Of a stretch of DNA of 64,000 nt, positions 6,150 to 61,644 are shown in pieces. How positions within the stretch are numbered: position 1 is the first letter of the stretch; each line of letters starts with the position of its first letter. The stretch comes from an uncultured Ruminococcus sp. (GTDB taxonomy: Bacteria > Bacillota > Clostridia > Oscillospirales > CAG-272), in assembly GCA_902782445.1 (NCBI GenBank), contig CACZNC010000016.1, positions 13,295 to 77,294 of the forward strand, read 5' to 3'. The notes under the pieces were generated by a model. It was not told the DNA's origin, ran no database searches, and saw only the letters and a list, made by a program, of their open reading frames with translations. A program made the translations under genes and the position numbers.

Positions 6150-6382
6150 GGACGCGCGTTCGGAAAGCCGAAACTGCTCTTTCACCCTCGCGCACATATT
6201 CAGGTTCAGACAGACATGCAGCCCGAATTGAGCGATCAAAAATCCATCCGGGCGAAACCTGAAATTTTGCGGGCGAATGTTCCACGTGAAACAATTCTTA
6301 ATTCATCATTCTGAATTCTGAATTTCATTCCTAATTCCTCATTCCTCATTCACTCCTCACTCCTAACTCCTAACTCATCACT
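6150..6382. repeat. R03 mosaic element: partial G(+) - parS - arm
   Basis: Only the parS-proximal half of G (…CCTCGCGCACAT..CAG.TTCAGACAGACATGCAGCCCGAA…) is present. Confidence 0.7.
6278..6293. promoter_or_regulatory. parS: parS-type 16-mer TGTTCCACGTGAAACA (canonical B. subtilis-type site)
   Basis: Exact read; R03. Confidence 0.65.
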
Positions 6383-9015: not shown

Positions 9016-9572
9016 CATCCCTTCACGAAGGGAAATAAGGAATGAAACGCTCCGCGTTTCGGATTTAATGTCCCTACGCCGCGTCGACGCAGTCACGCAG
9101 ACGGGCAGCCGGGAGGGACCATCTCAGGCCGACGAGTGTTGCTTCGCAAACTCTGCCCCTCCCGAGGGTCCAATTTGCGGAGCAAATAGTTGGCCGTATG
9201 GCATAACCTTACCGCTCGTCCCGGAATCAAAATTCAATCTTGCATCCCACGTCCCCGCGCGGTCTCTGTTCGTGCAGCCGAAACATGCGCAGACAATGTC
9301 TGACGCACCGACGCAGTCGTGCTGGCCTCCGGCGGAGATTCAGGCGCGCATTGGGCACAGGACGCGCATCGCTGAATCGAAACCTGTTTCCGCATCCTCG
9401 CGCACATGCTCAGATTCAGACAGACATGCAGCCCGAACCGCGCGAACGAAAACCGTCCGGGCGAAACATGAAGTTTTGTCTGCGATTGTTCCACGTGAAA
9501 CAATTCTGAATTCATCATTCTGAATTCTGAATTTCATTCCTCATTCTACTAACCACTAGCCGCTAACTACTA
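9016..9572. repeat. R05 mosaic element: G(+) - parS - arm
   Basis: Separates the ECF sigma gene from the candidate anti-sigma ORF. Confidence 0.8.
9487..9502. promoter_or_regulatory. parS: parS-type 16-mer TGTTCCACGTGAAACA
   Basis: Exact read; R05. Confidence 0.65.
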
Positions 9573-11198: not shown

Positions 11199-11498
11199 GT
11201 GCGGGAAAACGACCGGGGAAAGCCCCCTTTTCCATGCGCGCCTGAATCTCCGCCGCAAGGCCGCAGGATTTATCCTGCGCACGGGTTCGACTGCACGCCG
11301 GAGACCGCGCGGGGTTGGCCTCATGTTCCGGCTCGTTCAATCTGCAATCTGCAAGAGCGCGCGGGGACGCAGTTCATTCATCAGCCAAAAGAACGCGCGT
11401 CCCATCCATTCCAGCGGAAGCGCTCCCATCTAAAAACCCAAACACCTCCGCCGAACTCCACCCCGCCGCGGACCTCCAAACGGATAAACCCGAAAAAC

Positions 11499-13550: not shown

Positions 13551-14179
13551 AACGAGTTAGGAGTGGCTTGGTTAGTAGCTAGCGGCTAGTGGCTAGTAGC
13601 TAGTAGACCGCCCTCGTGAAATTAGGAATGAGGAATGAAATTCAGAATTCAGAATTATGAATTAAGAATTGTTTCACGTGAAACATTTGCCCGCCGAAAC
13701 TCCATGTTTCGCCCGGACGGTTTTCGATCGCGCGGTTCGGGCTGCATGTCGATCTGAATCTGAGTATGTGCGCGAGGACAAAGAAACAGTTTTTGCTTCC
13801 CGTCCGCGCGTCCTGTGCCCAATGCGCGCCTGAATCTCCGCCGGAGGCCAGCACGACTGCGTCGGTGCGTCAGACTTTGTCTGCGCACCACTCCAACTGC
13901 ACGAACAAAGACCGCGCGAGGACCGTGGGATGCAAGATCGAATTTCGAATACGGAACGAGCGGTAAGTTTATGCCATACGGCCAAGGACCCGCAGGGGGG
14001 ACTTCGGCCTGAGATGTTCCCCCTGCCGCCCGTCTGCGTGACTGCGTCGACGCGGCGTAGGGACATAAATCCGAAACGCGTAGCGTTTCATTCCTTATTT
14101 ACCTTCGATGAAGGTATGCTTTTCTCCGCCGACGGTCAAGAATGACCGTCGTTGCTGATTTCGTAAAGCGGAGCTTTGC
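13551..14179. repeat. R07 mosaic element: arm - parS - G(-)
   Basis: Between the tig stop and the clpP upstream region. Confidence 0.8.
13670..13685. promoter_or_regulatory. parS: parS-type 16-mer, perfect TGTTTCACGTGAAACA
   Basis: Exact read; R07. Confidence 0.65.
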
Positions 14180-17703: not shown

Positions 17704-18036
17704 ATGCGGAAAAACGTGAAGAGAAGCCCCCTTTTCCATGCGCGCCTGAATCTCCGCCGCAAGGCCAGCACGACTGCGTCGGTGCGTAGGACATTGTCCT
17801 GCGCATGTTTCAGCTGCACCAACACAGACCGCGCGGGGTTGGCCTCATGTTCCGGCTCGTCCGTCTGAATCTGTCAAAGTCCGCGGGGATCGCTCCGTGT
17901 TTCAGCTTCAAGACCGCGCGACCTTTCCATCGTTGCGCAGCGGGCGGAGCGCTCCCATCAAAAAATCAAAATTCCAGCACCGCACTCCACCCCGCCGCAG
18001 GAAATCCCGCAGGAGAAAAACCATGAATCCAAAATC

Positions 18037-20082: not shown

Positions 20083-20391
20083 CGTTGAAGTCCTCCTTCG
20101 TGAATCGTGCATCGGGAAACGGTTTTCGTGGCCGGGGTTCGTTCGGGGTGGAATTTGCGTTTTTTGGATGGGAGCGCTTCGCTGGGATGGAAGGGACGCG
20201 CGGCCGTTCAGCTGAAAAATGGAGCGATCCCCGCGGGCTTTGACAGATTCAGACAGACGAGCCGGAATATGGAGACAACCCGGCTTGATCGCCGAAGTGC
20301 GGCCAAACCCGTGCACGGAACAAGTTCCGTGGGCTCCGCCAGTGTTTCAGGCGCGCATTGGAAAGGGGACGGAGTGCGGTTTTCCGCTCAA

Positions 20392-20407
20392 TGTTTCACG
20401 TGAAACA
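20392..20407. promoter_or_regulatory. parS: parS-type 16-mer, perfect TGTTTCACGTGAAACA
   Basis: Exact read; R09. Confidence 0.65.
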
Positions 20408-20645
20408 ATCGTGATTTCGGACGGCTGACCTCCGTCGTTTCGCTTCTCTTTGTCATTCTGAGGAGCCTGCGACGAAGAATCTCCGCACATGGAGGATGGG
20501 TTGGCCTTAACGTTGGGAGATTCTTCGCTGACAGCACAACTGCGTTGGTGCGCACGACCGCGTTGGTGCGCATGACTGTGTCGGTGCGTCAGAATGACAA
20601 CGTGAGGGCGGAATGGGACGTGCGTCGGCCGAAATTCCGGAAAAA

Positions 20646-20661
20646 TGTTTCACGTGAAACA
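20646..20661. promoter_or_regulatory. parS: parS-type 16-mer, perfect TGTTTCACGTGAAACA
   Basis: Exact read; R09. Confidence 0.65.
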
Positions 20662-20967
20662 TACGGCAGAAAGCCCGGACATTGTCCCCTTTATATGCGC
20701 GACTGAATCGCCGCCGCAAGGCCGCCGCATTGGCATGTCGTTAAGCTGTTTTTTTCGTGCATCCGGCCAATGCTAAAGACCGCGCGGGGTTGACGCCATG
20801 TTCAGCCCGTCAGAGACGCAATCGGCAGAAGTGCGCGGGGATTGGCTCAAACTCCGGCTGCAAGTCCGCGCGTCCGTCGCCGACTCCTTACCCATATAAT
20901 ATAAACTCAAATCCCGCAAATCACGCCCCTCGATGCGGACAAACACCCATTCCCTCCTCCCTCGTCT

Positions 20968-23553: not shown

Positions 23554-23695
23554 GCAATAACCTCATGGGGAAGTTGTTAGAGGAGAGTGGCTAGTGGCTA
23601 GTAGAACGTGAAACGAGTGAGGAGTGGACGAGAATTAGGAATTAGGAATGAATTCAGAATTCAGAATGATGAATTAAGAATTAGGAATTGGCGGA

Positions 23696-23711
23696 TGTTT
23701 CACGTGGAACA
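23696..23711. promoter_or_regulatory. parS: parS-type 16-mer TGTTTCACGTGGAACA (complement of the canonical site)
   Basis: Exact read; R11. Confidence 0.65.
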
Positions 23712-25959: not shown

Positions 25960-26376
25960 GAGGGATGATCTGCTTCTTTCATGGGCGGAAATCTATGTCG
26001 GAAGGGAGTCCGCGGCGGGGCGGGGGGATGTGCGGGACGGGATGGGGAACTGTGCGGGACGGGCGTTTTTTGGATGGGAGCGCTTCGCCCGCTTCGCATG
26101 GATTCGGGAGACGCGCCGTCGTTCAGCCGGGAAATGGGGCGATCTTCGCGGGTCGGATCAGATTCAATCCGGACGAGCCGGAACATGGAGCCAACCCGGC
26201 TTGATCGCCGACGTGCGGCCGAACCCATGCGCGGGACAGGCCCGCGGCCTCGCGGCGGAGATTCAGGCGCGCATTGGAAGGGGGACAATGTCAGGGCTCT
26301 TCTCCCGATTGTTTCACGTGAAACAAGGAAAAACGGTTCTCCTGGCCACTAGCCGCTTCCAACTACCAACTCCTCA
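25960..26376. repeat. R13 mosaic element: F(-) - parS - arm
   Basis: Between mreC and mreB. The arm supplies the mreB TGA stop. Confidence 0.8.
26310..26325. promoter_or_regulatory. parS: parS-type 16-mer, perfect TGTTTCACGTGAAACA
   Basis: Exact read; R13. Confidence 0.65.
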
Positions 26377-27405: not shown

Positions 27406-28060
27406 ACGTATGGATCCCGCTTCACGGGAAATAGGAATGAAACGCTGCGCGTTTCAGATTTTATGTCCCTGCGCCGCGTCGACGCAGTCACGCAGACGGG
27501 CAGCCGGGAGGGAACATCTCATGGCCGACGAGTGTTGCTTCGCAAACTCTGCCCCTCCCGAGGGTCCAATTTGCGGAGCAAATAGTTGGCCGTATGGCAT
27601 AAACTTACCGCTCGTCCCGTCAGTTGAAATCTGACAGTGCGTCCCACGGTCCTCGCGCGGTCTGTGTTCGTGCAGCCGAAACATGCGCAGACAATGTCTG
27701 ACGCACCGACGCAGTCGTGCTGGCCTTACGGCGGAGATTCAGGCGCGCATTACACGGGACGCGCGGACGGGAAGTAGAAAATAAAACTTCATTTTCGCGC
27801 ACGGTTTGAGATTCAGACAGACATGCAGACAGAGCCGCGCGATCGAAAAGCATTCGGGTGAAACATGGGGTTTGGGCAAAGCGGCCGGCTGTTTTGATCG
27901 AAAAAGTCAGCCGTGAAGGAGGAAAACCGTGATTTTCCCCTTTCACCGATCACTTTTTCAGGGATCAGCGGGAATTTCGTCCGTTTCACGTGAAACAATT
28001 CTGAATTCATCATTCTGAATTCTGAATTCACTCGTCCCATTCCTTATTCCTCATTCCTCT
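27406..28060. repeat. R14 mosaic element: G(+) - parS variant - arm
   Basis: Between mreB and maf. The arm encodes the maf C-terminus. Confidence 0.8.
27982..27997. promoter_or_regulatory. parS: parS-like variant CGTTTCACGTGAAACA (1 mismatch)
   Basis: Exact read; R14. Confidence 0.5.
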
Positions 28061-32918: not shown

Positions 32919-33206
32919 GGACCCGGAAAATAAAAAAGGAGCGGGGAACGGGTCGACCTTTCCGCGGCCCCCATCCCCCGGCACAGGGAAAACATGAAGA
33001 GATAACCGGAGCGCGAAATCAGAGCACGGCCGGCCGGAAAAAAATCCGACCAGACGCCGTTCCTGTTTCTGCGCCCGCGGGAGAACTCTCTGAGGTTTTC
33101 CCTTTTTTGCGTGCAAAAAACAATGACAAGTGAGGAGTGAGGAGTGGCTGGCGGTTAGTGGTTAGTGGCTAGTAGAACCGTTCTCCGTACTTGATTCGGA
33201 AGCGGG

Positions 33207-33454: not shown

Positions 33455-33550
33455 CCGTCCAATTCTTAATTCATAATTCTGAATTCTGAATTCACTCCTC
33501 ACTCCTAACTCCTCACTCCTAACTCATCTCATTCCCACGGGGGTGCTTTC

Positions 33551-36465: not shown

Positions 36466-36807
36466 AGTTTTGAGTTTGGGTCAGAATGAAAATTGTTCGT
36501 TTCGGTATGGGGTGCGGCGCGGGATTTTCGGTTTTTTTAGTTCGGGATGACGTGCATCGCGGGATTATCGGGTTTTTATTTGGGAGCGCTTCGCTGGGAT
36601 TCAAGGGACGCGCGGGCTTGTATCGAAAACCGCTTCACTCTCTTCGCGCGCTTTTGCAGATTGCGGACATGACGAGCCGGAATATGGAGACAACCAGGCT
36701 TGATCGCCGAAGTACGGTTGAACCCGTGCGCAGAACAAGTTCTGCGGCCTCCGGCAGAAATTCAGGCGCGCATTGGAAGAGGGACAACGTGCAGTCGGTT
36801 GGGATGA

Positions 36808-36823
36808 TGTTTCACGTGAAACA
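36808..36823. promoter_or_regulatory. parS: parS-type 16-mer, perfect TGTTTCACGTGAAACA
   Basis: Exact read; R19. Confidence 0.65.
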
Positions 36824-37175
36824 ATCGTGATTTCGTTCTGTTTTTCCTGAAACGATTCTTCATTCAGGGTGATTATCCCTCGTCGTTTCGCTTCTCGCTG
36901 TCATTCTGAGGAGCCTGCGACGAAGAATCTTTGCGCTTCATTCTATAGCTGCAGTCATAGTCGGAGGATTCCCGGCGAGGATCGGACAGACCGGCCCTCT
37001 GATCTGTATTGTCTGACACTCGGAGGGGTTTGTCATGAGAACAATTTACCGACTAGAACTACGGCTTGATCTTTCCAGTGCGAAGATTCTTCGCTGACAG
37101 CACAACTGCGTTGGTGCGTCAGAATGACAACGTAGAGGCGGAACGGGATGTGCAGCGGCCGATTTTTCGGAGAAA

Positions 37176-37191
37176 TGTTTCACGTGAAACA
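37176..37191. promoter_or_regulatory. parS: parS-type 16-mer, perfect TGTTTCACGTGAAACA
   Basis: Exact read; R19. Confidence 0.65.
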
Positions 37192-37465
37192 ATGAGCCGG
37201 AAACTGCACATTGTCCCCCTTATATGCGCGCCTGAATCACCGCCGGAGGCCGCAGGATTTATCCTGCGCATGGGTTAGGCTGCACGTCGGCGATCAAGCC
37301 GGGTCAGCGCCATGTTCCGGCTCGTCCGGTTTGAACCGGAAGGGACCCGCGGGGGATCGGCCCATGATCCGGCTGAAAGTACGCGCGTCCTGCGCCTGCT
37401 CCTTTTCCCGATCATCAAACCGTCATTCCCCCGCCGGAACGAACCCCCGCCGCGGAATCCTTCAT

Positions 37466-40084: not shown

Positions 40085-40681
40085 GATCTTAGTTTAATCT
40101 CCTTCTGCTTAACGAGACGAAAGCCTCCGCCTTTCAAAACCAGCCATGACGGGCATTCCGGTGACTGCGTCGACCGATCCGTCGGCGGAGGAGGGTTTGT
40201 CCATCCCTTCACGAAGGGAAATAAGGTATGAAACGCTACGCGTTTCGGATTTAATGTCCCTGCGCGGGACGGGCGCCGGGAGGGACCATCTCAGGCCGAA
40301 GGCCCCTCCCGAGGGTCCCTTGGCCGTATGGCATAACTGTACAGCTCGTTCCGGAATCGAAATTCGACTGTATATCCCACGGTCCTCGCGCGGTCTTTGT
40401 TCGTACAGCTTAACCCGTGCACGGAACAAGTTCCGTGGGCTTCGCCGGCGTTTCAGGCGCGCATTGGGCACAGGGACGCGCGATTTTGAAGCTGAAACTG
40501 TTTCTCAGTCCTCGCGCACGGTTTTAGATTCAGAGGGACGTGCAGCCCGAACCGCGCGAACAAAAATCTGTTTGGGTGGAACATGGAGTTTTGGCGGCGA
40601 ATGTTTCACGTGAAACATCAGTCAATTCCTAACTCCTAACTCGTCCTCTGCTAGCCGCTAGCCGCTTCCAACTAGCAACTA
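40085..40681. repeat. R20 mosaic element: G(+) - parS - arm
   Basis: Between the gyrA start and the PfkB kinase stop. Confidence 0.8.
40602..40617. promoter_or_regulatory. parS: parS-type 16-mer, perfect TGTTTCACGTGAAACA
   Basis: Exact read; R20. Confidence 0.65.
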
Positions 40682-41566: not shown

Positions 41567-42362
41567 AAGAACCTCCGTGTAGAGTTGGAAATACGAAACC
41601 GGGATTTCGTTTCGGCCTGGGATTTTCGTTTTTCGGATGGGAACGCTTCGCTGGGATTCGGGTGACGCGCGACCTTAAAGCCGAAACAGAGAGCAATCCC
41701 CGCGCGCTTGAACCGATTGCGGATTTGACAAGTCGAACATGGCGTCAACCCCGCGCGGTCTGTGTTCGGACAGCTGAAACATGCGCAGGATAAATCCTGC
41801 GGCCTTGCGGCGGTGATTCTGTCGCGCATATAAAGGGGACAATGTACAGTCTTTCTTGCCGATTGTTTCACGTGAAACATTAGAACGCCCAAACTCCATG
41901 TTTAGGCTAAACAGATTTTCGATCGCGCCGTTCTGCCTGCACGTCTGTCTGAATCTGAGCATATGCGCGAGGAAGAAGAAACTATTTCAGCTTCCCGTCC
42001 GCGCGTCCTGTGCCCAATGCGCGCCTGAATCTCCGCCGGAGGCCGCAGACTTGTCTGCGCATGTTTCAACTGCACGAACAGAGACCGCGCGAGGACGTGG
42101 GATGCAGAATCGAATTTCGATTCCGGGACGAGCTGTAAGTTTATGCCATACGGCCAAGGGACCCTCGGGAGGGGCCTTCGGCCTGAGATGGTCCCTCCCG
42201 GCGCCCGTCCCGCGCAGGGACATAAATTCTGAAAGGCGTAGCCTTTCATTCCTTAAATACCTTCCGTGAAGGTATGAACATCCTCCTCCGCCGACGGACA
42301 GGAATGTCCGTCGTTGCTGATTCAGAAAGGCGGAGTCTTTCGTCCCGGGTTTGGGTGGCGGG
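41567..42362. repeat. R21 mosaic element: F(-) - parS - G(-)
   Basis: One hub with one F arm and one G arm. Between the kinase start and the gyrB stop. Confidence 0.8.
41864..41879. promoter_or_regulatory. parS: parS-type 16-mer, perfect TGTTTCACGTGAAACA
   Basis: Exact read; R21. Confidence 0.65.
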
Positions 42363-45486: not shown

Positions 45487-46764
45487 GTTATTCATTCTAA
45501 TGGGCATGACGAAGAACATAAACATGTCCTCGCGGTATTCTCTTTCCGACTGGGGGACGGGGGATTCAGGGCTATTGCCCAGGCGCTCGCCATAGACTTC
45601 GGGGTCGGGCTTCGCGTCGAGGAAGGTGGTCCCCTCCGCCGGTTCGATGACCGCGCCCATGCCGGGGGTGTTCAGCCGGATCCGCAGGCGGTCGCAGTCC
45701 GAGGGGCAGGCTTTCAGGGCTTCGAGGAGGTAGCGGCAGTTGAAGCCGATGGAGAGGTCCGCGCCGTCGATGGCAGCCGGGATCCGCTCGAACACCGACC
45801 CGCCGGCGGACACGGAGGACATGGAGACTTCCTTCCCCTTGAAATCCAGCTTCACGTAGGACCGCCCGTTCCCGCCGAGCTTGTCTTCGGTGACGATGGA
45901 CGCGCGTTCCACCGCCCCGAGCAGTTCCGCCCTTGAGACGAAGGCCTGAGTCATGTAGGTGGAGGGGAGGAGCCGTTCGTAGGCCATGTATTCCGCGTCG
46001 AGCATCCGGGTGAAGTAGTAGGTCCCGTCCACCCGGAAGACGATGTTCTTGCGGCCGATGATGAGTTCCGCGTCGTCCTCGGTGTCCCGGAGCATCTTCT
46101 GCAGTTCCCCGAGGAATCTGCCCGGGATGATCATTTCGCTCCGGTCGCCGTTTTCGGAGGAGGTGACTTCGCACTTCGCGGCGGAAAGGCGGTTCCCGTC
46201 GCATCCCACTGCCGTGAGCCAGCCCTCCCGGATGCGGAAGAGCCCGCCGTTGAAGGACACCCGCTGGTCGTTCTGGGCCACGGAGAAGACGGTCTCGGAG
46301 ATCAGGGCCTTCAGTTTGCGCTGGGGGACGAGGCATCTGCTCTCACCGACGAAGCGGGGCATGGAGGGGAAATCCTCGCCGGGAGCAGCGGTGATGGAGA
46401 ATTCCGAGAAGCCGCCCCGGACGGAGACCTTGCCCCGGTCGCCGATCTCGAGGGTGATCTCGCCGGAGGGGAGGGAGCGGACGATCTGCAGGATCTTGAC
46501 GGTGTTGATGACGTAGAGGCCCTCCTCCTCGATTTTGCAGGGGACGAGGGTGCGGAGCCCTTTTTCGAGGTCGAAGGCGGAGATGCGGCAGAGATCCCCG
46601 TCGATGCCTTCGCCGTCGTGTTCGCCGAGCTCGCCGAAGCGGGGATTCGGGGGACACTCGAAGAGGATGCCGTCGACGGACGCCATCGTGTTTTTGGTCT
46701 GCGCGACGGACACCGCGGGCGTGATCGCCGCCAGCAGGTCTTCGCGGTTGAAGGTGACTTTCAT
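45484..46764 (-). CDS. dnaN: DNA polymerase III beta sliding clamp
   Basis: 426 aa. MKVTFNREDLLAAITPAVSVAQTKNTM... ends ...FFVMPIRMNN. Downstream of dnaA-oriC. Confidence 0.93.
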   Translation of the reverse strand: MKVTFNREDLLAAITPAVSVAQTKNTMASVDGILFECPPNPRFGELGEHDGEGIDGDLCRISAFDLEKGLRTLVPCKIEEEGLYVINTVKILQIVRSLPSGEITLEIGDRGKVSVRGGFSEFSITAAPGEDFPSMPRFVGESRCLVPQRKLKALISETVFSVAQNDQRVSFNGGLFRIREGWLTAVGCDGNRLSAAKCEVTSSENGDRSEMIIPGRFLGELQKMLRDTEDDAELIIGRKNIVFRVDGTYYFTRMLDAEYMAYERLLPSTYMTQAFVSRAELLGAVERASIVTEDKLGGNGRSYVKLDFKGKEVSMSSVSAGGSVFERIPAAIDGADLSIGFNCRYLLEALKACPSDCDRLRIRLNTPGMGAVIEPAEGTTFLDAKPDPEVYGERLGNSPESPVPQSEREYREDMFMFFVMPIRMNN

Positions 46765-47151
46765 GTATGTTCTCCTTGGTTATGGTTCGTTGTCATGGGA
46801 GATTGAGAATGTATCTGAATTTCTCTCCCGGGGTTTTGGGGTGTGCGGGATTTGCGGTTTATATGATGGGAGCGCTTCGGTCCGGTTCGGGATGACGTGC
46901 GGTGCGGAATTATCGTTTTTTTATATGGGAGCGCTTCGCTGGGATGGAAGGGGTCGCGCGGACTTGAAGCCATAAAATGGAGCGATCCTCGCGGGATTCT
47001 TCAAATTCAAGCCGGACGAGCCTGATAGGGGAGGCAACCCCGCGCGGTCTCTGTTTTTGAAGCTGAAACATGCTCGGAGCAAGCTCCTCGGCCTTGCGGC
47101 GGTGATTCAGTCGCGCATGGAAGAGGGACAATGTATAGGCGGTCGGGATGA

Positions 47152-47167
47152 TGTTTCACGTGAAACA
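47152..47167. promoter_or_regulatory. parS: parS-type 16-mer, perfect TGTTTCACGTGAAACA
   Basis: Exact read; R24, dnaN side of oriC. Confidence 0.65.
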
Positions 47168-47381
47168 ATCGTGATTTCGTTCTGTTTTTCCTGAAACGAT
47201 TCTTTATTTTGGACGGCTGTCCCCCATCGTTCCGCTTCTCGTTGTCATTCTGAGGAGCCTGCGACGAAGAATCTCCGCACGTGAAGGATGGGTTGGCCTT
47301 GAAGCTGGGAGATTCTTCGCTGACAGCACAACTGCGTTGGAATGGGACGTGCAGCGTCCGATCTGACGGGAACGGCCCGCA

Positions 47382-47397
47382 TGTTTCACGTGAAACA
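47382..47397. promoter_or_regulatory. parS: parS-type 16-mer, perfect TGTTTCACGTGAAACA
   Basis: Exact read; R24. Confidence 0.65.
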
Positions 47398-48086
47398 TCC
47401 AGTCTTTCTCTTCACGTTGTCCCCTTTCCATGCGCGCCTGAATCTCTGCCGTAGGCCGCCGCATTGGCATATCGTTGTGCTATTCTTTTCGTGCATCCAG
47501 CCAATGCTGCAGACCGCGCGAGGTCAGCTTCATGTTCCGGCTCGTTCGGTCTGAATCGGAAACGACGCGCGGGGATTGCTCTGCGGCCCGGCTGAAAGTA
47601 CGCGCGTCCTGCGCCCAATCCTTTTCCGACTCATAAACCGAAAAATCCAAGTCGAATCGAAATCCCGCCCCGGACCTGACCCTCTGCTCCTCATTTTCTC
47701 CCTTCCGCGCGCAAGAGAATAGAAGAGAACAGATAAGATTAGATAAGAACAGCAGCAGGAGCAGTAGGCCCTGTGGGTCTTTGGGAAAACTCCGGGGGCT
47801 TTGCCGCCTGGCAGTTGACGGCAATTTCCGGTTCTCTCTGATAATTTTTCCTACATCAATTATAGCCGGACAGTCCGGCGTTCATGCGCGATTGTCTCCC
47901 GCCTGCCGGTTTTTTCCAGTTCCTGTGCCTTCCGGGGTGGGGAAATCCCTCCGGCTTTTTGGGAAAACCGCGGGGATCGGAGGCGTTTTCCTCTCCCGGA
48001 CCGACCCTTTCGGCGTCGAAATTCCGGTTTTCCGGGGCCCCGGGAGCGTCCGTTTTTCCACTCCCCGCCTGCGGAAACCTCCGGGC

Positions 48087-48095
48087 TGTGGAAAG
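48087..48095 (-). promoter_or_regulatory. DnaA box (TGTGGAAAG)
   Basis: Complement is CTTTCCACA, 7/9 to TTATCCACA. Confidence 0.5.
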
Positions 48096-48237
48096 AGGCG
48101 GTTCCCTTTTGCCGGGATTTTTCCGTGGACACCCTGCCCTTCCGGGTTTCTCCCCCCGGGACGTCGGACGCGCGGTCCTGCGGAGCTCCGATCAGTCCGG
48201 ATCCGGTTTTCGGATTTCCCGCCGGGTTTTCCGGGGG

Positions 48238-48246
48238 TTTTCCACA
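48238..48246 (+). promoter_or_regulatory. DnaA box (TTTTCCACA)
   Basis: 8/9 to TTATCCACA. Confidence 0.65.
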
Positions 48247-48353
48247 GGATTCGGGGCGGTTTTTCCGGGGGCGGGGAGGAAATCCGGGTTTTCGGCGTGC
48301 CGAGGGAGCCGTTTTCCGTTGGTTTTGCGTCAAGCGGGGGTGGAAAGCTCTGG

Positions 48354-48362
48354 TTTTCCACA
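48354..48362 (+). promoter_or_regulatory. DnaA box (TTTTCCACA)
   Basis: 8/9 match. Forms an inverted pair with the box at 48379, 16 bp away. Confidence 0.65.
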
Positions 48363-48378
48363 GAAGTTTTCCCCTGAT

Positions 48379-48387
48379 TGTGGAAAA
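48379..48387 (-). promoter_or_regulatory. DnaA box (TGTGGAAAA)
   Basis: Complement of TTTTCCACA, 8/9. Confidence 0.65.
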
Positions 48388-48442
48388 GTCCGAGGTGTTT
48401 TTTGCCCCGTTTTTCCGTCCGGATTTCGGCTTTGGGCACCGG

Positions 48443-48451
48443 TGTGGAAAA
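48443..48451 (-). promoter_or_regulatory. DnaA box (TGTGGAAAA)
   Basis: Complement of TTTTCCACA, 8/9. Confidence 0.65.
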
Positions 48452-48836
48452 ATATGGGGAAGTCAGCCGGTTTCCGCGGGGGAATGAGGTGACGGTTTTA
48501 TGTTATGGTTGTAATGGCTGATTCGGGATATTGTCTCGGTGCGGGATTATCGGGTTTTTGTATGGGATCGCTTCGCTGGAATGGAAGGGACGCGCGTTAC
48601 TGTATCGAAAACCTGTTTTTTCTCCTCGCGCGCTTTGACAGATTCTGACATGACGAGCCTGAGAATGGAGCCAACCTCGCGCGGTCTTCGCACGTGCAGC
48701 CGAAACATGCGCAGACAAGTCTGCGGCCTTGCGGCGGTGATTCAGGCGCGCATTCGGCGTTGGACGCGTGTTCGTGCGGCGGGATCTGTTTGTTCATCCT
48801 CGCGCGGATCAAGAAAGACAATGGTTTTCTTGGCTT

Positions 48837-48852
48837 TGTTTCACGTGAAACA
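48837..48852. promoter_or_regulatory. parS: parS-type 16-mer, perfect TGTTTCACGTGAAACA
   Basis: Exact read; R25, dnaA side of oriC. Confidence 0.65.
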
Positions 48853-49112
48853 ATCGCGGTTTCGGACGGCTGACCCTCATCGTTCCGCTTCTCGTTGTCA
48901 TTCTGAGGAGCCTGCGACGAAGAATCTCCGCACGTGTAGGATGGGTTGGCCTTGAAGTTGGGAGATTCTTCGCTGACAGCACAACTGCGTTGGTGCGCAC
49001 GACTGCGTCGGTGCGTCAGAATGACAAAGTGAGGACGAAACGGGACGTGCGGCGGCCTGTCTGACGGAGAAAAGCAGGATCGTTTCACAGAAACACCGGC
49101 AGAAAAAGGAAT

Positions 49113-49128
49113 TGTTTCACGTGAAACA
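49113..49128. promoter_or_regulatory. parS: parS-type 16-mer, perfect TGTTTCACGTGAAACA
   Basis: Exact read; R25. A decayed remnant CGTTTCACAGAAACA starts at 49081. Confidence 0.65.
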
Positions 49129-49431
49129 TCACCCCAACCGCCCAGACTCTGTCCCCTTTCCATGCGCGCCTGAATCACCGCCGTGAGGCCACGGGACTTG
49201 TCCCGTGCATGTTTCAGTTGCACGAACACAGACCGCGCGGGGAGAACGCCATGTTCCGCCCGTCATGTCTGAATCGGCGGAAGTGCGCGGGGACCGCATC
49301 CTGTTCCGGCTTCCCGTCCGCGCGTCCTGTGCCCACTCCTTTTCCCTCAAATAAAACCGCCATCTTTCCGCCGCGCTCAACCCCGATGCGGAACCACCTC
49401 CGCGCTCGGCCCATACAGAGAATACAAACCT

Positions 49432-51309
49432 TTATCCTCTCCGTATCTCCTTGGATATCTGCGCGACCCTCGCCTCAAACACGGCGTCTGACGCGAGCTC
49501 CGCCTCCACCTTCGCGATGTTCGAATGCACCGTGGAGTGGTCCCGGTAGAAAAATACGCCGATCTGGGGATAGGACGCGCCGGTGACGGTCCGCACCAGG
49601 TACATCGACACGTTCCGGGCGGTCTGGATGTTCTTCTTTCTGTCCTTGCCGAGAATGTCGTCCGGGGTGACGGAGTAGTGGGCCGCCACCTTCGCGATGA
49701 TCCGCGCCACCGTGTCCGTCAGCGGCTCCGTGGATCGGATGTACTCCGGGACGGTCTTCAAAACCATCTCCATCGTGACCGGGTCCCCGGAGATCATGTG
49801 CTTCATGGCGAGCTTCTTCACGACGCCCTCCAGCTGGCGAATGTTCTCCTGCAGGTTCGTGGCGAGGAAGTCGATGACGTCCGTCGGGACTTCCACGTGG
49901 TTCTGGCTGATCTTCTCTTTGAGGATCGCCATGCGGAGCTCGTAGTCCGGCGGCTGGATGTCGACAAGCAGTCCGGCTTCGAAGCGGCTGCGGATCCGGC
50001 TTTCGAGGGAGGTGAGCTCCTTCGGGGGCCTGTCCGAGGTGATGACGATCTGCTTCCTGTCCTCGTAGAGGGCGTCGAAGGTGTGGAAGAATTCGGTCTG
50101 GGTGCTCTCCTTCCCGGCGATGAACTGGATATCGTCGATGAGGAGCATGTCGGCCTTGCGGTATTTGTCGCGGAAGGCCTGGTTCCGGTCCCGCCGGATC
50201 GCCTCGATCATCTGGTTCATGAACTCCTCGCCCTTGACGTAGACGATCTTTAACCCGGGATCCCGCTTCATGGCCCGGTTGGCGATGGCGTACATCAGGT
50301 GGGTCTTGCCGAGGCCCGAGGGACCCCAGATAAAGAGGGGATTGATGGACATGCCCACGTTGTCGGCGACGCTGAGGGCCGCCGCGTGAGCCATCTGATT
50401 GGACCGGCCCACGATGAAGGTCTCGAAGGTGTAGTCGCGGCCGGGACCGTTGAGCAGCCGGTTCTGGAGATCGGGGGAGGAGGGGGGCACGGTCCGGGAG
50501 GGGGTGGGGATGCCGCCGCTGAACCCGGCGTTCTCCCGGCTTGCCGTCTGCCGTCCGTCGTCGGAGGGCGCGGGATTTTCTCTCCCTCCGTCAACTCCGG
50601 CGGGATTTTTGTAAACGGGTCTCGAGGCGGATCCGGGGACGGAGGGCCTGCTTGCGCCGGAAGAGGTCGGGGCTCCCGTGTGCCCCACGATGCGGTAGAC
50701 CGAGGGGGCGCCGATGTTCACGTAATCCGGCTCCCGTTCGGCGTCCTCGTCGGGCCAGCCCGTTCCGTTCCCCTCCGCGGTGGACCGTATGGCGTCGATA
50801 TCCCCCACGCCGGTCTGCCAGCCCTCGTCCCCGTCGTCCTCGCCGTCGTCGTCACGCTCGTCATACTGACGGGAAAGCGGGTCGGGGAGCTGTCCGGGAA
50901 TCCGCAGGCTGTCGCGGTTCCGGGGGAGGGTGAAGGGGACGGAGGGATCCGGGTCCGCCGCGGGATCCGCGTTCTGTCCGCCGGTACGGGGTTTTGGAAG
51001 CACGGCCCCGTCGGCGGTGAGGATGGTGCGGAGGGCGGGGTCGACCGTGACGGCGATCTCCGGCCGGTAGCCGAGGACTTCTTCGAGGGAGTCCGCGATG
51101 AGGTCGGAATAGCGCTCCGATACGATGCCGCACTTCATTTTGGTCTCGCAGGCGAACACGGCCCGTTCCGCGTCCAAAAGCTCCAGCCGCAGCCTGCCGA
51201 ACCAGAGCTGATAGGACTGCTTCGTCCCGGTATACCGTTCCCGCATGACCTCGTCGAGGGCCGCCCGGATCTCGTCCAGCCCGTCGGAGGCCTGTTTTTC
51301 TCTATTCAT
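49432..51309 (-). CDS. dnaA: chromosomal replication initiator protein DnaA (very long domain II)
   Basis: 625 aa. Domain I, a ~195-aa P/G/D-rich linker, AAA+ NPLFIWGPSGLGKTHLMYAI, and domain IV ...RKKNIQTARNVSMYLVR...SYPQIGVFFYRDHSTVH. Confidence 0.97.
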   Translation of the reverse strand: MNREKQASDGLDEIRAALDEVMRERYTGTKQSYQLWFGRLRLELLDAERAVFACETKMKCGIVSERYSDLIADSLEEVLGYRPEIAVTVDPALRTILTADGAVLPKPRTGGQNADPAADPDPSVPFTLPRNRDSLRIPGQLPDPLSRQYDERDDDGEDDGDEGWQTGVGDIDAIRSTAEGNGTGWPDEDAEREPDYVNIGAPSVYRIVGHTGAPTSSGASRPSVPGSASRPVYKNPAGVDGGRENPAPSDDGRQTASRENAGFSGGIPTPSRTVPPSSPDLQNRLLNGPGRDYTFETFIVGRSNQMAHAAALSVADNVGMSINPLFIWGPSGLGKTHLMYAIANRAMKRDPGLKIVYVKGEEFMNQMIEAIRRDRNQAFRDKYRKADMLLIDDIQFIAGKESTQTEFFHTFDALYEDRKQIVITSDRPPKELTSLESRIRSRFEAGLLVDIQPPDYELRMAILKEKISQNHVEVPTDVIDFLATNLQENIRQLEGVVKKLAMKHMISGDPVTMEMVLKTVPEYIRSTEPLTDTVARIIAKVAAHYSVTPDDILGKDRKKNIQTARNVSMYLVRTVTGASYPQIGVFFYRDHSTVHSNIAKVEAELASDAVFEARVAQISKEIRRG

Positions 51310-51469: not shown

Positions 51470-51904
51470 GTGGCTAGTGGTTAGTAGAACCGTCAGCATG
51501 AAATGAGGAATGAGGAGTGAAATTCAGAATTCAGAATTAAGAATTGTTTCACGTGAAACATCATGTCTTCCCCCGCACATTGTCCCCTTTCCATGCGCGC
51601 CTGAATCTCTGCCGGAGGCCGCAGGATTTATCCTGCGCATGTTTCGGCTGCACTTCGGCGATCAAGCCGGGTTGGCTCCATGTTCCGGCTCGTCAAATCC
51701 GCAATCGGTATAAGCGCGCGAAGAGCGTGAAGCGGTTTTTGATACAGAACCGCGCGTCCTATCCATTCCAGCGAAGCGCTCCCATATAAAAAACTATAAT
51801 CCCGCACCCCACCCCATCCCGCCGCGGACAACAAAAAAATCCCTCCCCACAGAAGATCCCCGTGAGGAGGAACGGTTATCGGCGATCAGCAGTCCCGGAA
51901 AGAT
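51470..51904. repeat. R26 mosaic element: arm - parS - F(+)
   Basis: Starts about 90 bp upstream of the dnaA promoter and ends at the SBP stop. Confidence 0.8.
51545..51560. promoter_or_regulatory. parS: parS-type 16-mer, perfect TGTTTCACGTGAAACA
   Basis: Exact read; R26. Confidence 0.65.
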
Positions 51905-53401
51905 TTACGGCAGATTCTTATAACTCTCGATGGCCTTGTCGAGCTTCTTGACCAGGAGCTTTTCGTTTTTCGCCCACCAGCTGGCGAAGGCGCCTTCGTT
52001 GGAGGAACCGAACACGGCGTTGGTGTACACGGATCCGGTGCCGAGGGCCTTGTCCGCCATCATGATGAACGGGCTGTTGATGTGGTTGTAGATGATGTCG
52101 ACCATCTGGCTGTCGATGTTCGCGTCGGCGTACTTGATCTTCAGGGCGGTCTCGTACCAGGCGGGGACGACCCGGCGGTAGGACTCCGCGCAGAGGGCTT
52201 CGACGGAGGCGGTGGAGGCGGAGATCCGCTCGGGGTTGGCGGCCACGGGGATCCCCACTCCGCATCCGTTGGCGGTGGCGGCTCCGCAGAGGTAGTCGAG
52301 CCCTTCTTCGAGCTTCGGGTAGGGCAGGATGCCGTATTCGAAGGACACGTCGCGGAGCGTCATGGCGGTGTCGAACATGCCGGGGTAGAAGAGGGAGGTG
52401 CCGGCCCGGAAGGTGTCCGCCTTGGAGCCCAGCATGGAGATATTGTCGGTGTAGAGGAGCTTGTAGAGGGTCTCGCCCCAGCGGATGCCGTTCTCGTTGT
52501 AGATGTCGAGGATCGGGAAGCCTTCCTCGTCCCGGAGAACGTAGGTCAGGCCGGTGGACATGGACATGTAGTTCGGGATGCCCCACTGCTCGAAGCGGAA
52601 GCCCATGATGTCCGCGTCGTCCGCCGATCCGTTGCCGTTGACGTCGGTGTAGACCCCGCGGCAGTAGTCGGCGAATTTGTCGTAGGTCCAGGTCCCGTCG
52701 AGGACCGCGTCGTAGAGCTGGTTCGGGTCGCCGAAGTAGTCAATGAACAGGGGCTTGTTGTAGTACATGGCGGAGGCGCCGAAGAAGACGGTCAGGCAGA
52801 TATCGCCGTTGAGGAAATACCGCTTGGTGTTGTCAAACTGGCTCTCGGCCATCATGTCCCGGTACCACCAGGGCTGTTCCAGATTCACGTTGTCGAGGGT
52901 GAGCCAGTCGTAGTAGTAGCCCTGGATGGACTGGGAGAAGAGCTGGGAGGACTCCTCCATGATGAGGTCGTAGTCATCGGTCCCGGCCTGCAGGAACTGG
53001 GAGACCTCGCCGGGGAATCCGCCCCAGTCGGCCGATCCGGCGATGAAATTGAACTTGACGTTCAGCCGGTCCTCCACGGTGATGTTCCGGTTGTAGACGG
53101 CGTCGAGGACCACGTCGCCGTTGAGCTCGCCGAGGGCGTCGTACTTCTGGCAGTTTTCGAGGCCGAAGGTGAGGATGTTGAGGGTCGTTCCGGCGAAATC
53201 CAGGTCGGGGGAGAGGGTGTCGGGGTAGTTGGCCCGGGTGATCTCGGTCTCCTCGGGCTCGTCGGCCGTCGGATTATCGGAGGAATTCGTCCCCGCGGGA
53301 TTTGCGGGATCGTTCTGCGTGCCCGTCTCGCTGCATCCGGCGAGGGAGAAGCAGGAAGCGGTCAGCAGAAGCGCGAGGAATGCGGTGATGAGGCGTTTCA
53401 T
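51905..53401 (-). CDS. extracellular solute-binding lipoprotein (ABC transporter substrate-binding protein), orphan
   Basis: Lipobox MKRLITAFLALLLTASCFSLAGC. 498-aa family-1 SBP-like sequence. No permease or ATPase genes adjacent. Confidence 0.8.
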   Translation of the reverse strand: MKRLITAFLALLLTASCFSLAGCSETGTQNDPANPAGTNSSDNPTADEPEETEITRANYPDTLSPDLDFAGTTLNILTFGLENCQKYDALGELNGDVVLDAVYNRNITVEDRLNVKFNFIAGSADWGGFPGEVSQFLQAGTDDYDLIMEESSQLFSQSIQGYYYDWLTLDNVNLEQPWWYRDMMAESQFDNTKRYFLNGDICLTVFFGASAMYYNKPLFIDYFGDPNQLYDAVLDGTWTYDKFADYCRGVYTDVNGNGSADDADIMGFRFEQWGIPNYMSMSTGLTYVLRDEEGFPILDIYNENGIRWGETLYKLLYTDNISMLGSKADTFRAGTSLFYPGMFDTAMTLRDVSFEYGILPYPKLEEGLDYLCGAATANGCGVGIPVAANPERISASTASVEALCAESYRRVVPAWYETALKIKYADANIDSQMVDIIYNHINSPFIMMADKALGTGSVYTNAVFGSSNEGAFASWWAKNEKLLVKKLDKAIESYKNLP

Positions 53402-53832
53402 GAAAAAGTCCTTTCGTTATATTCGGAGAGTGCCGTATAGGAATATTATAGCGGAAAAATCGGCTGAATGTGTGGATTTTTTGTAACAATGAGCGGGAGG
53501 AGGGAGGATCTGCGGCGGGATGACGTGCGGGGCTTTCGTTTTATTTGATGGGAGCGCTTCGGTCCGGTTCGGGATGACGTGCGGTGCAGGATTATCGGTT
53601 TTTATATGGGAGCGCTTCGCTGGGATGGAAGGGGACGCGCGTTTCTGTATCGAAAAACGGTTCACTGTCTTCGCGCGCTTTTGAAGATTGCGGACGGAAC
53701 GAGCCGGAACATGGAGCCAACCCGGCTTGATCGCCGAAGTACGGTTGAACCCGTGCGCAGAACAAGTTCTGCGGCCTCCGGCAGAGATTCAGGCGCGCAT
53801 GTAAAGGGGACAATGTGCGGAGGAAGACGTGA

Positions 53833-53848: not shown

Positions 53849-54132
53849 ATCGTGATTTCGTTCTGTTTCTCCCGAAACGATTCTTCATTCCGTGCGGCTG
53901 ACCCCGTCGTTTCGCTTCTCTTTGTCATTCTGAGGAGCCTGCGACGAAGAATCTCCGCACGTGGAGGATGGGTTGGCCCTGAAGCTGGGAGATTCTTCAC
54001 TGATAGCACGACTGCGTCGGTGCGCACGACTGCGTTGGTGCGTCAGAATGACAAGCTGGGGGCGGGATGGGACGTGCAGCGGCAGATTTGACGGAAAAAG
54101 CCTGCGGAAATTCCGACGCACGAAAACCATTC

Positions 54133-57677: not shown

Positions 57678-57997
57678 TTATCCCGATCACCCGCACTCTG
57701 TCCCTTTTCAATGCGCGCCTGAATCACTGCATGTTTCAGCCATCCGAACACAGACCGCGCGAGGTTGACGCCATGTTTCGCTCGTCATTCCTGAATCTGT
57801 CAAAGCACGCGAAGATGCGGAACCGGTTTTCGATGCAAGCCCGCGCGCCCGACGCCGACTCCTTTTCCCTCAAATCACCCCGAAAATCCCCCGCAAAACT
57901 CCCCCCGGCTCCCCACTCCTCACTATTCCCCCTCCCCCCAAAAAAATCTCCGGCCATACCCTCAACGGAGTACGGCCGGACGGTCGGATCTTCTTTT

Positions 57998-58861: not shown

Positions 58862-58879
58862 GACGGAATTCCTCCGATT

Positions 58880-59384
58880 TTAGTTGTTAGTTGGAAGTGG
58901 CTAGTGGCTAGTAGAGCGAAGAGGGAAGAGGGAATTCAGAATTCAGAATGAAGAATTGTTTCACGTGAAACATCCGCCGCCAAAACTCTATGTTTCGCCC
59001 GGACAGATTTTCGATCCCGCGGTTCAGCCTGCACGCGGATCTGAATCTGAATATGTGCGCGAGGACGGAGAAACAGTTTCAGCTTTCCATCCGCGCGTCC
59101 CATGTAATGCGCGCCTGAATCTCCGCCGTAAGGCCGCAGGACTTGTCCTGCGCATGTTTCGGCTGCACGAGCAGAGACCGCGCGAGGACGTGGGATGCAC
59201 AGTCGATTTTCGATTCAGGGACGAGCTGTAAGTTTATGCCATACGGCCAAGGGACCCGCACAGGGGGCCTTCGGCCTGAGATGGTCCCCCGTGCCGCCGT
59301 CCCGCGCAGGGACATAAATATACCGGTCGACGCAGTCACCGGGACCGTCGTTGCTGATTTCGAAAGGCGGAGTCTTTCGTTCGC
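58880..59384. repeat. R29 mosaic element: arm - parS - G(-)
   Basis: Between the hydrolase start and the oxidoreductase stop. Confidence 0.8.
58957..58972. promoter_or_regulatory. parS: parS-type 16-mer, perfect TGTTTCACGTGAAACA
   Basis: Exact read; R29. Confidence 0.65.
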
Positions 59385-61628: not shown

Positions 61629-61644
61629 TGTTTCACGTGAAACA
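61629..61644. promoter_or_regulatory. parS: parS-type 16-mer, perfect TGTTTCACGTGAAACA
   Basis: Exact read; R31. Confidence 0.65.

Follow-up and report, generated by a model that had tools for sequence, protein, structure and literature searches.

Copies of a short repeat module, here called F, lie in the intergenic spacers of the 64-kb stretch of DNA analysed here (the window), and a typical copy can fold into a hairpin whose sequence differs between copies while its two arms stay complementary, as at the focal site, 20314-20331. This raises the question whether the pairing is constrained or simply inherited with the copies and, if constrained, whether the constraint acts in RNA or in DNA. 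We found that the pairing is under a real constraint that the relatedness of the copies does not explain. As to what F is, the account we favour, which has about an even chance of being right, is a ~62-nt block of an undescribed intergenic mosaic repeat family of the REP, BIME or BOX kind, in which intrastrand pairing is constrained, likeliest in single-stranded DNA.

The window contains 23 copies of the ~62-nt module, all intergenic and split 12 to 11 between the + and - strands. These were combined with 115 metagenome stretches retrieved with a pattern from outside the hairpin, so as to avoid bias. A regular-expression search of the window and the stretches gave 244 copies, the rumen metagenome contigs contributing ~220 beyond those of the window, and in the first 655 kb a covariance model detected 222. 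The metagenome loci (L-numbers, such as L007, L021, L061, L110 and L124, compared with the window) represent ~0.6 Mb of non-redundant DNA in 96 groups. Most contain other genes and have the repeats alone in common with the window, and about a dozen are orthologous to window segments, with aligned DNA 91-97% and proteins 98-100% identical.

The F core reads ATGCGCGCCTGAATC-N-CYGCCG...GGCC-(hairpin)-GCAYG-KTTYRGCTGCAC, and the strand reading ATGCGCGCCTGAATC... (ATGCGC...) folds into two abutting stem-loops, a mini-stem and then the main stem. The mini-stem has 3 bp (G-C, then C-G or G-C, then a closing C-G); of 150 sequences, 111 have C-G and 38 have G-C as its middle pair, and one has neither. 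The mini-stem loop is G-N-A or G-N-R-A in 224 of 226 copies, in eight different sequences (GGA 99, GCAA 49, GTAA 34, GAA 24, GTGA 9, GCGA 6, GTA 2 and GGGA 1), such that C-GNA-G triloops make up 125 and GNRA tetraloops 99 of the 226. Counting the flanking C and G, the main stem has 8 bp, the arm C-R-C-R-G-R-A-Y and its complement enclosing a TT loop, and across alleles it forms 6-8 bp of perfect Watson-Crick pairing. Positions 1, 3 and 5 are invariant and position 7 nearly so. Positions 2, 4, 6 and 8 have two states each, differing by transitions only and mirrored in the opposite arm every time (respectively G-C 121 / A-T 21, A-T 117 / G-C 33, G-C 68 / A-T 45 and C-G 74 / T-A 32). The GCAGAC/GTCTGC allele is shortened symmetrically by the loss of one pair in both arms. 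Double-sided changes affect five of the eight main-hairpin pairs and one of the three mini-stem pairs. Four variable pairs and one pair deletion yield the diversity of F, some ten discrete alleles. Stems are perfect in 164 of 190 typical copies. A tandem G.A/A.G mismatch, itself a stable motif, is present in nine, one arm has lost a base in 11, and four show a single mismatch, G.T in two of them (one variant seen twice and two others once each).

An earlier note on this DNA had drawn attention to six of these hairpins, at 2168-2183, 20314-20331, 36730-36745, 48711-48724, 49190-49207 and 59136-59151, and all six are there. The stems that it quoted are one pair short, a flanking C and G pairing in every copy (e.g. 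cGCAGGAC-TT-GTCCTGCg). It covered eight of the 23 window copies and placed all hairpins between ATGCGC and GGCC, which holds for the GCAG-type alleles, while the CACGG-type alleles, including the focal one, have GTGCAC...GGGCTCC, homologous sequence that aligns without gaps. Two copies described as carrying a longer stem (~20715-20790 and ~47455-47520) are likewise present; their stem, however, belongs to another module, found in place of the 3' half of F, and is not a variant of the same stem. This alternative 3' module, with its GCATTGGC...GCCAATGC stem, occurs in these two window copies and at several metagenome loci.

We assayed covariation in two alignments. In 150 copies, 89.9% of cells pair, compared to 84.5% in shuffles (0 of 500 reach the observed value) and 19-44% when the partner column is slid. 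In a covariance-model alignment of 141 distinct sequences, 97.8% of cells pair, again with 0 of 500 shuffles reaching this value and with slid controls at 30-43%. Double-changed cells number 163 in the latter alignment, versus 44.6 in shuffles, and neither one-sided changes nor G.U intermediates were observed at the covarying pairs, bearing out the claim that the sequence changes while the pairing is kept. These controls settle that pairing and double changes lie well beyond chance. Given that repeat copies are related, linkage between columns was taken as the control for relatedness. For the five variable pairs, whose partners lie 3-15 nt apart, r2 is 0.97-1.0, whereas the other polymorphic column pairs have a median r2 of 0.02-0.04 in every distance class from 1 to 16 nt, with high values among non-partner columns only between stem positions 2 and 4 (pairs (30,45) and (32,43)). 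Although the mini-stem lies within 3-10 nt of the hairpin, its type is combined with nearly all hairpin alleles, the outer and inner stem states occur in all combinations, each paired, and chimeras of one allele's 5' arm with another's 3' arm are absent from ~190 copies. Since unpaired columns are almost unlinked and the mini-stem combines freely, the copies have been shuffled at the scale of nucleotides, and the alternative that relatedness accounts for the pairing is contradicted by this control. To the extent that these tests can do so, this disposes of the refuting condition set in the earlier note.

The F copies of the window, and the features adjoining the focal copy, are given here by coordinates and strand.

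20314-20331, - strand: focal main hairpin, reading CACGGAAC-TT-GTTCCGTG; 8 bp, TT loop
20332-20340, - strand: focal mini-hairpin, GGC-GGA-GCC, directly abutting the main hairpin; GNA triloop, C-G closed
20297-20358, - strand: focal F copy, 62 nt, intergenic; covariance model score 76.3 bits
20392-20407, unstranded: canonical parS, TGTTTCACGTGAAACA, 33 nt upstream of the focal F
20695-20790, + strand: partner F of the divergent pair; 5' half of F, then GCATTGGC...GCCAATGC (8-bp stem, 34-nt loop) replacing the hairpin and 3' half
1914-1948, - strand: F copy, deletion variant without both hairpins
2140-2200, + strand: F copy, hairpin 2167-2184, cGCAGGAT-TT-ATCCTGCg; mini-stem GGC-GGA-GCC
9272-9351, - strand: F copy, 18-nt unit GCACGACTGCGTCGGTGC before a T-bulged CAGAC-ATT-GTCTG hairpin
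11234-11296, + strand: F copy, hairpin 11262-11279, GCAGGAT allele; GCAA tetraloop mini-hairpin
13822-13902, + strand: F copy, 18-nt unit inserted; the L061 ortholog has the CACGGAAC allele
17738-17819, + strand: F copy, 18-nt unit inserted
26213-26274, - strand: F copy, hairpin 26230-26246, CGCGGG-CCTGT-CCCGCG (6-bp stem)
27670-27750, - strand: F copy, 18-nt unit inserted; three alleles in three strains at this site
36712-36773, - strand: F copy, hairpin 36729-36746, GCAGAAC allele
37224-37285, + strand: F copy, hairpin 37251-37268, GCAGGAT allele
40403-40464, - strand: F copy, hairpin 40420-40437, CACGGAAC allele; mini-stem GGC-GAA-GCC
41768-41829, - strand: F copy, hairpin 41784-41801, GCAGGAT allele
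42017-42075, + strand: F copy, hairpin 42044-42059, GCAGAC allele (one pair shorter)
47057-47118, - strand: F copy, CGAGGAGC-TT-GCTCCGAG: 5 bp, tandem G.A/A.G mismatch, closing pair; allele also in the genome SIG615
47430-47520, + strand: 5' half of F with the long-stem module GCATTGGC...GCCAATGC
48694-48753, - strand: F copy, hairpin 48710-48725, GCAGAC allele; L021 ortholog GCAGGAT
49162-49223, + strand: F copy, hairpin 49190-49207, CACGGGAC allele
51593-51653, + strand: F copy, hairpin 51620-51637, GCAGGAT allele; L021 ortholog GCAGAAC
53739-53800, - strand: F copy, hairpin 53756-53773, GCAGAAC allele; ortholog GCAGAC
57711-57745, + strand: F copy without both hairpins; the L021 ortholog is a full-length F
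59107-59168, + strand: F copy, hairpin 59135-59152, GCAGGAC allele; GTAA tetraloop mini-hairpin

The 18-nt bulged-hairpin unit GCACGACTGCGTCGGTGC is inserted before the stem in four window copies. It occurs 0, 1 or 2 times inside F, up to three times in another module, and in tandem arrays of 1-3 copies elsewhere in the window (20528-20600, 48973-49027 and 54000-54054), and it has a compensatory pair of its own (G-C 83, A-T 31, G.T 4 and A.C 2 in 120 units). In the hairpin-less F copies, the missing piece is flanked by CTGC/CCGC microrepeats. Copies of F form six divergent pairs, F(-)...parS...(central module)...parS...F(+), at 1900-2260, 20190-20870, 36600-37330, 41700-42130, 46900-47560 and 48600-49280. 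These are large imperfect inverted repeats with arms of ~200 bp and differing hairpin alleles in the two arms, the two F copies being 190-450 nt apart with parS and the central module between them. The focal F neighbours a gene for a DUF5107 protein of 681 aa that starts near 20083; a long open reading frame running across the focal hairpin is an artefact of an upstream GTG, a public contig calling the gene as 681 aa.

Comparison of strains indicates how the alleles change. At 13 window F sites with an orthologous copy, the variable segment is identical at five and different at eight (strain ~95% identical in aligned DNA). GCAGGAT is switched to GCAGAAC at 51593, GCAGAC to GCAGGAT at 48753, and GCAGGAC to GCAGAAC at 59107, together with a change of the mini-loop from GTAA to GGA. 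The whole module is replaced between strains at 13822 and 20695, and three strains have three alleles at 27750. Both arms changed jointly at every switched site where each copy has a hairpin, and the switched-in alleles are identical to ones found elsewhere in the data set. Divergence between strains is 1.9% in coding DNA, 11.5% in the intergenic mosaic and 13.1% in F. We saw no whole-element gain or loss between strains, only unit-number changes, small indels and allele switches. From these observations we infer that the dispersed copies exchange short tracts by gene conversion, and not that each site undergoes fresh compensatory mutation or that the element actively transposes.

Several features make the evidence lean slightly towards DNA as the level at which F acts. 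There is no orientation bias (in addition to the near-equal strand counts, single copies lie with the neighbouring gene in six cases and against it in five, plus the six divergent pairs), the pairing is strictly Watson-Crick, the hairpins are not called as terminators and terminator-like sites show no enrichment in the region, and slippage-type indels are found at the hairpins. The C-GNA-G triloop is, moreover, a very stable DNA mini-hairpin motif. Strand asymmetry is also lacking: the imperfect pairs of the 18-nt unit (G.T 4 versus A.C 2) give no strand preference, and imperfect pairs are too few for wobble asymmetry to assign a strand. The loop motifs favour the F(+) strand as the folded one. 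In the account we favour, fully paired alleles would arise through a handful of double changes, transitions in nearly every case, and would be moved between dispersed copies by short-tract gene conversion, with mismatched versions persisting merely as rare singletons, and the F hairpin would act when folded in single-stranded DNA, as is thought for REP hairpins.

A number of observations weigh against this account. Nearest-neighbour energies favour the opposite strand (-23.5 versus -20.1 kcal/mol, with RNA parameters), which contradicts the argument from the loop motifs. A classic RNA motif, the GNRA tetraloop, caps the mini-stem in 99 of 226 copies. The repeats are covered by metatranscriptome contigs, which are undirected, collapse many copies and possibly contain DNA. 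G.U pairs in a candidate outer helix and in a competing TGCGC/GCGCA helix fit solely the F(+) strand. The GTAG guide motif of REP elements was not found in or next to F, where the stem is preceded on its 5' side by the mini-hairpin (..GGC/GCC) and followed by GCAYG. No match to a REP-associated transposase (RAYT) or IS200-type transposase was obtained at E < 0.09 in ~780 kb, a weak test on account of its query, and transposition-like presence or absence of the element was not seen between strains. Few independent double events, about six or seven, lie behind the covariation, and, every sequence being a metagenome assembly, mis-joins at repeats could inflate the apparent allele switching.

Constraint on structure at the RNA level, with F transcribed in 5' or 3' untranslated regions or as a small RNA and its stem-loops, for example, stabilising the transcript, directing its processing or binding a protein, is unlikely, albeit the main alternative. 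The GNRA loops and the F(+)-specific G.U pairs would fit it, the repeat-rich spacers appear in metatranscriptome contigs at a word depth at least that of the trigger-factor gene, and several copies lie between co-directional genes normally in operons (mreB-mreC) and thus are probably transcribed. Against it, F is indifferent to the orientation of its flanking genes, G.U intermediates are absent from the covarying pairs in 141 distinct sequences, more than half of the mini-loops are triloops, and the contigs carry the uncertainties given above. A search of the whole window with Rfam 15 gave nothing but two tRNAs at gathering score, and one of 46700-49500 at E<=1 gave only a chance long noncoding RNA match. 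An intrinsic terminator was considered and rejected: the stem is followed by GCATGTTTC or GCACGGGTT, with no T tail, and follows no orientation rule. A terminator and promoter scan gave 17 sites versus 15.7 expected, with no enrichment and no F hairpin among the sites. Single-sequence fold z-scores, from -1.9 to +0.4, were uninformative. RNAalifold on a 320-nt unit around F supported its two hairpins and no larger conserved fold. We also set aside two further helices. In the outer helix, CTGAAWC/GKTTYRG, 81% of cells pair, but there is little variation and the central pair is usually mismatched. The competing TGCGC/GCGCA helix proposed by RNAalifold shows one-sided changes only and clashes with the covarying pair 30-45, though it may be an alternative conformer.

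That F has no function is, in our view, decidedly unlikely. Here, quasi-palindromes would be perfected by hairpin-templated repair or template switching, the alleles spread by gene conversion, and the covariation left as a mutational by-product. Templating readily explains the symmetric one-pair shortening of GCAGGAC to GCAGAC, the hairpin-less copies resemble deletions between the CTGC/CCGC microrepeats, the number of 18-nt units slips between strains, pairing is strictly Watson-Crick without wobble, and the whole mosaic turns over fast. The earlier note's view of the pattern as a signature of selection on structure stands as far as the constraint on pairing goes, but is qualified by there being about ten shuffled alleles and by hairpin-templated correction, which may also keep short palindromes perfect. 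Unconstrained symmetrisation should, however, let every position drift, transversions included, whereas three of the eight stem pairs are invariant and the four covarying ones, at every second position, show transitions only, which leaves the purine/pyrimidine pattern invariant. Templating also gives no reason for the loops to be kept as TT or GNA/GNRA, and the CACGGG-C allele, a one-sided single-base deletion, stays uncorrected in 7-11 copies.

It is highly improbable that common descent and linkage alone, with whole haplotypes inherited and pairing unconstrained, or unrelated insertions, produced the pattern. The alleles are few, the pairs (30,45) and (32,43) are linked together, and the two long-stem copies and the 18-nt insertions truly are non-homologous pieces. 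Yet the background r2 is as low at 1-5 nt as at any distance, the paired combinations of stem states are complete, and no arm chimera was found; the hairpin alleles can be aligned gaplessly and have their invariant pairs and loop in common. Barely credible is the idea that F is a palindromic operator recognised in double-stranded form by a dimeric protein. Dyad symmetry, the fixed purine/pyrimidine pattern and the fixed spacing to parS (33 nt; 30-35 nt upstream of F) in 90 of 244 copies could be cited for it, but a protein tolerating transitions at four positions needs no change in the mate, an intolerant one forbids ~ten alleles, and the asymmetric TT loop and adjacent GNA/GNRA mini-hairpin are meaningless in duplex DNA.

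Returning to a mosaic repeat that folds in single-stranded DNA, we compared F with known systems. REP and BIME elements of Enterobacteria and Pseudomonas, and REPINs, which are REP doublets mobilised by RAYT/TnpA-REP, resemble F in being high-copy short extragenic palindromes that form inverted doublets and mosaics, with no orientation preference and with a hairpin kept by compensatory changes. Like the short REP palindromes (20-40 nt), F is extragenic and abundant (23 copies in 64 kb; 222 covariance-model matches in 655 kb). Compensatory changes are common in REPIN hairpins (PMC3116915), and REP hairpins, which have a conserved GTAG tetranucleotide directly 5' of the palindrome, are thought to act and be recognised as folded single-stranded DNA (PMC8266576). 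F differs from REP in lacking GTAG 5' of the stem and a detected RAYT, in the coexistence of several perfect-stem alleles, in showing no excision or insertion polymorphism, in its Firmicute host and in the parS carried by the mosaic. Its pairs, with differing alleles, are 190-450 nt apart, in contrast to REPIN doublets of ~70-110 nt, which form one long hairpin. A domain scan covering all but a few of the window open reading frames likewise found no transposase. Given the absence of a GTAG motif and of RAYT in the sequence examined, F is filed as a structured intergenic mosaic repeat, not as REP.

The BOX (boxA-boxB(n)-boxC), RUP and SPRITE repeats of the pneumococcus, reportedly the subject of work by Martin in 1992 and Croucher in 2011, offer a second comparison. 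BOX elements share with F a Firmicute host, an intergenic position, predicted stable stem-loops and a modular build with a variable internal unit (in F, the 18-nt unit, at 0-3). The number of internal units in F varies also between orthologous loci, as expected of BOX-type modularity. BOX has, reportedly, been studied and acts mainly as transcribed RNA, and is likened to F by build, not by sequence; we know of no sequence relationship between the two and of no BOX element carrying parS. The Correia/NIME elements of Neisseria and rhizobial RIME are also mosaics of short modules bounded by inverted repeats that fill intergenic space, but are unrelated to F in sequence and host. Correia elements have defined terminal inverted repeats and a target-site duplication, neither of which was seen in F. 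Extraordinarily stable DNA mini-hairpins, d(GCGAAGC) or d(C-GNA-G), and GNRA tetraloops are said to have been described by Hirao and Yoshizawa. The F mini-stem is alike in its closing C-G and in its caps, the triloops GGA, GAA and GTA and the tetraloops GCAA, GTAA, GTGA and GCGA, one variant being a literal GCGAAGC, but such mini-hairpins are biophysical motifs, not a family of genetic elements. Integron attC sites, recognised as folded single strands, similarly keep structure while sequence varies; F differs in its much shorter stems and in having no extrahelical bases and no cassette organisation. No integrase was found among the window genes, and the genes between the repeats are housekeeping genes (dnaA, dnaN, gyrB, gyrA, mreB, mreC, tig, clpP and clpX).

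We also considered as a partner of F a family of 498-aa proteins, represented in the window at 51905-53401 (- strand), with paralogues on F-bearing contigs (19 matches at 17 loci, e.g. L117, L042, L009 and L039; 24-31% identity). This candidate was rejected: the protein has a lipoprotein signal peptide with an LAGC lipobox, is of sugar-binding-lipoprotein size, matches nothing in Pfam or NCBIfam and contains nothing nuclease- or transposase-like. The family probably comprises divergent sugar-binding lipoproteins not linked to the repeats.

The 16-mer TGTTTCACGTGAAACA near the focal F is the canonical parS/ParB site, and its density on the repeats is a more unusual feature than the hairpin itself. 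The window has 49 parS sites, 35 perfect and 14 near-perfect (e.g. 2091-2106, 20392-20407, 20646-20661, 49113-49128 and 61629-61644), versus 0.01 expected by chance, and another 245 were found in the ~0.6 Mb of metagenome loci that have the repeats alone in common with the window. The largest origin parS clusters cited in a review have 20-23 sites (PMC7333895). A ParB/Spo0J homologue is encoded on a contig bearing both F and parS (L124:2890-3648, - strand; 46% identity to B. subtilis Spo0J over 254 aa, E 2e-61), and a second, more distant ParB-like protein at L110:379-930 (+ strand). These observations raise the thought, to us a long shot, that F serves as the structured arm in a composite parS-hairpin repeat, its hairpins propagating or positioning parS, a centromere site turned into a dispersed repeat. 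The hairpins might then mobilise the unit, or act as cruciform roadblocks or as loading aids for ParB/SMC clamps. The parS-F units are spread over at least 0.6 Mb of the lineage's DNA.

Long arrays of strict 7-nt periodicity were also noted between parS and gene starts, mostly oriented with the gene, at 33455-33550 (before the + strand gene at 33551), in mirror image at 33128-33179, and at 6291-6340, 9500-9546, 23563-23696 and 58873-58957. Their units follow the order AATTCTK/AATTCAT, TAGCCAC/TAACCAC, TCCTCAC/TCCTAAC, and unit numbers vary between orthologous strains.

The window has a G+C content of 60% and encodes rnpA, yidD, tig, mreB, mreC, gyrA, gyrB, dnaN and dnaA, as well as clpP and clpX, and the presence of the first nine marks it as an origin-side chromosomal region. 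The rnpA/yidD genes (~0.8-1.7 kb) and dnaA/dnaN/gyrB/gyrA (37-51 kb) are all on the - strand and ~48 kb apart, an arrangement that differs from the usual layout of divergent rpmH-rnpA and dnaA. Coding sequence makes up ~67% of the window, the remainder being intergenic, with each spacer filled by a mosaic of short repeat modules. The sequence words of the window were found in bovine and sheep gut metagenomes, and a scan of a genome collection identified the Oscillospiraceae metagenome-assembled genome SIG615 as the only reference genome carrying F, the remaining matches being mostly chance. SIG615 and the window share 84.5% DNA identity over the clpX/clpP region and 95% protein identity in ClpP, and the host is an uncultured rumen bacterium (Firmicute) related to SIG615. 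The F copy of SIG615 (L007:4533-4594), in an intergenic position adjoining clpX/clpP that matches window 11234-11296, has the tandem-G.A allele and no parS nearby, which implies that F predates the association with parS or persists across species. F was not found in any viral contig, the organism was not detected in the raw-read DNA runs X21-X23, and the F repeat sequences were not found in the searchable literature.

Collectively, these data add a repeat family whose host is an uncultured rumen Firmicute with intergenic mosaic making up about a third of its sequenced region, DNA of a kind usually lost from metagenome bins. They also provide a clean natural case in which structural constraint is separable from relatedness, since fine recombination leaves base-paired positions alone associated. 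If the hairpins act in single-stranded DNA without RAYT, the REP paradigm would be widened. If they are tied to the neighbouring parS, they would bear on how centromere sites multiply and cluster, and a composite parS-hairpin repeat, if true, would mean that ParB biology in this lineage is organised genome-wide and not at the origin.

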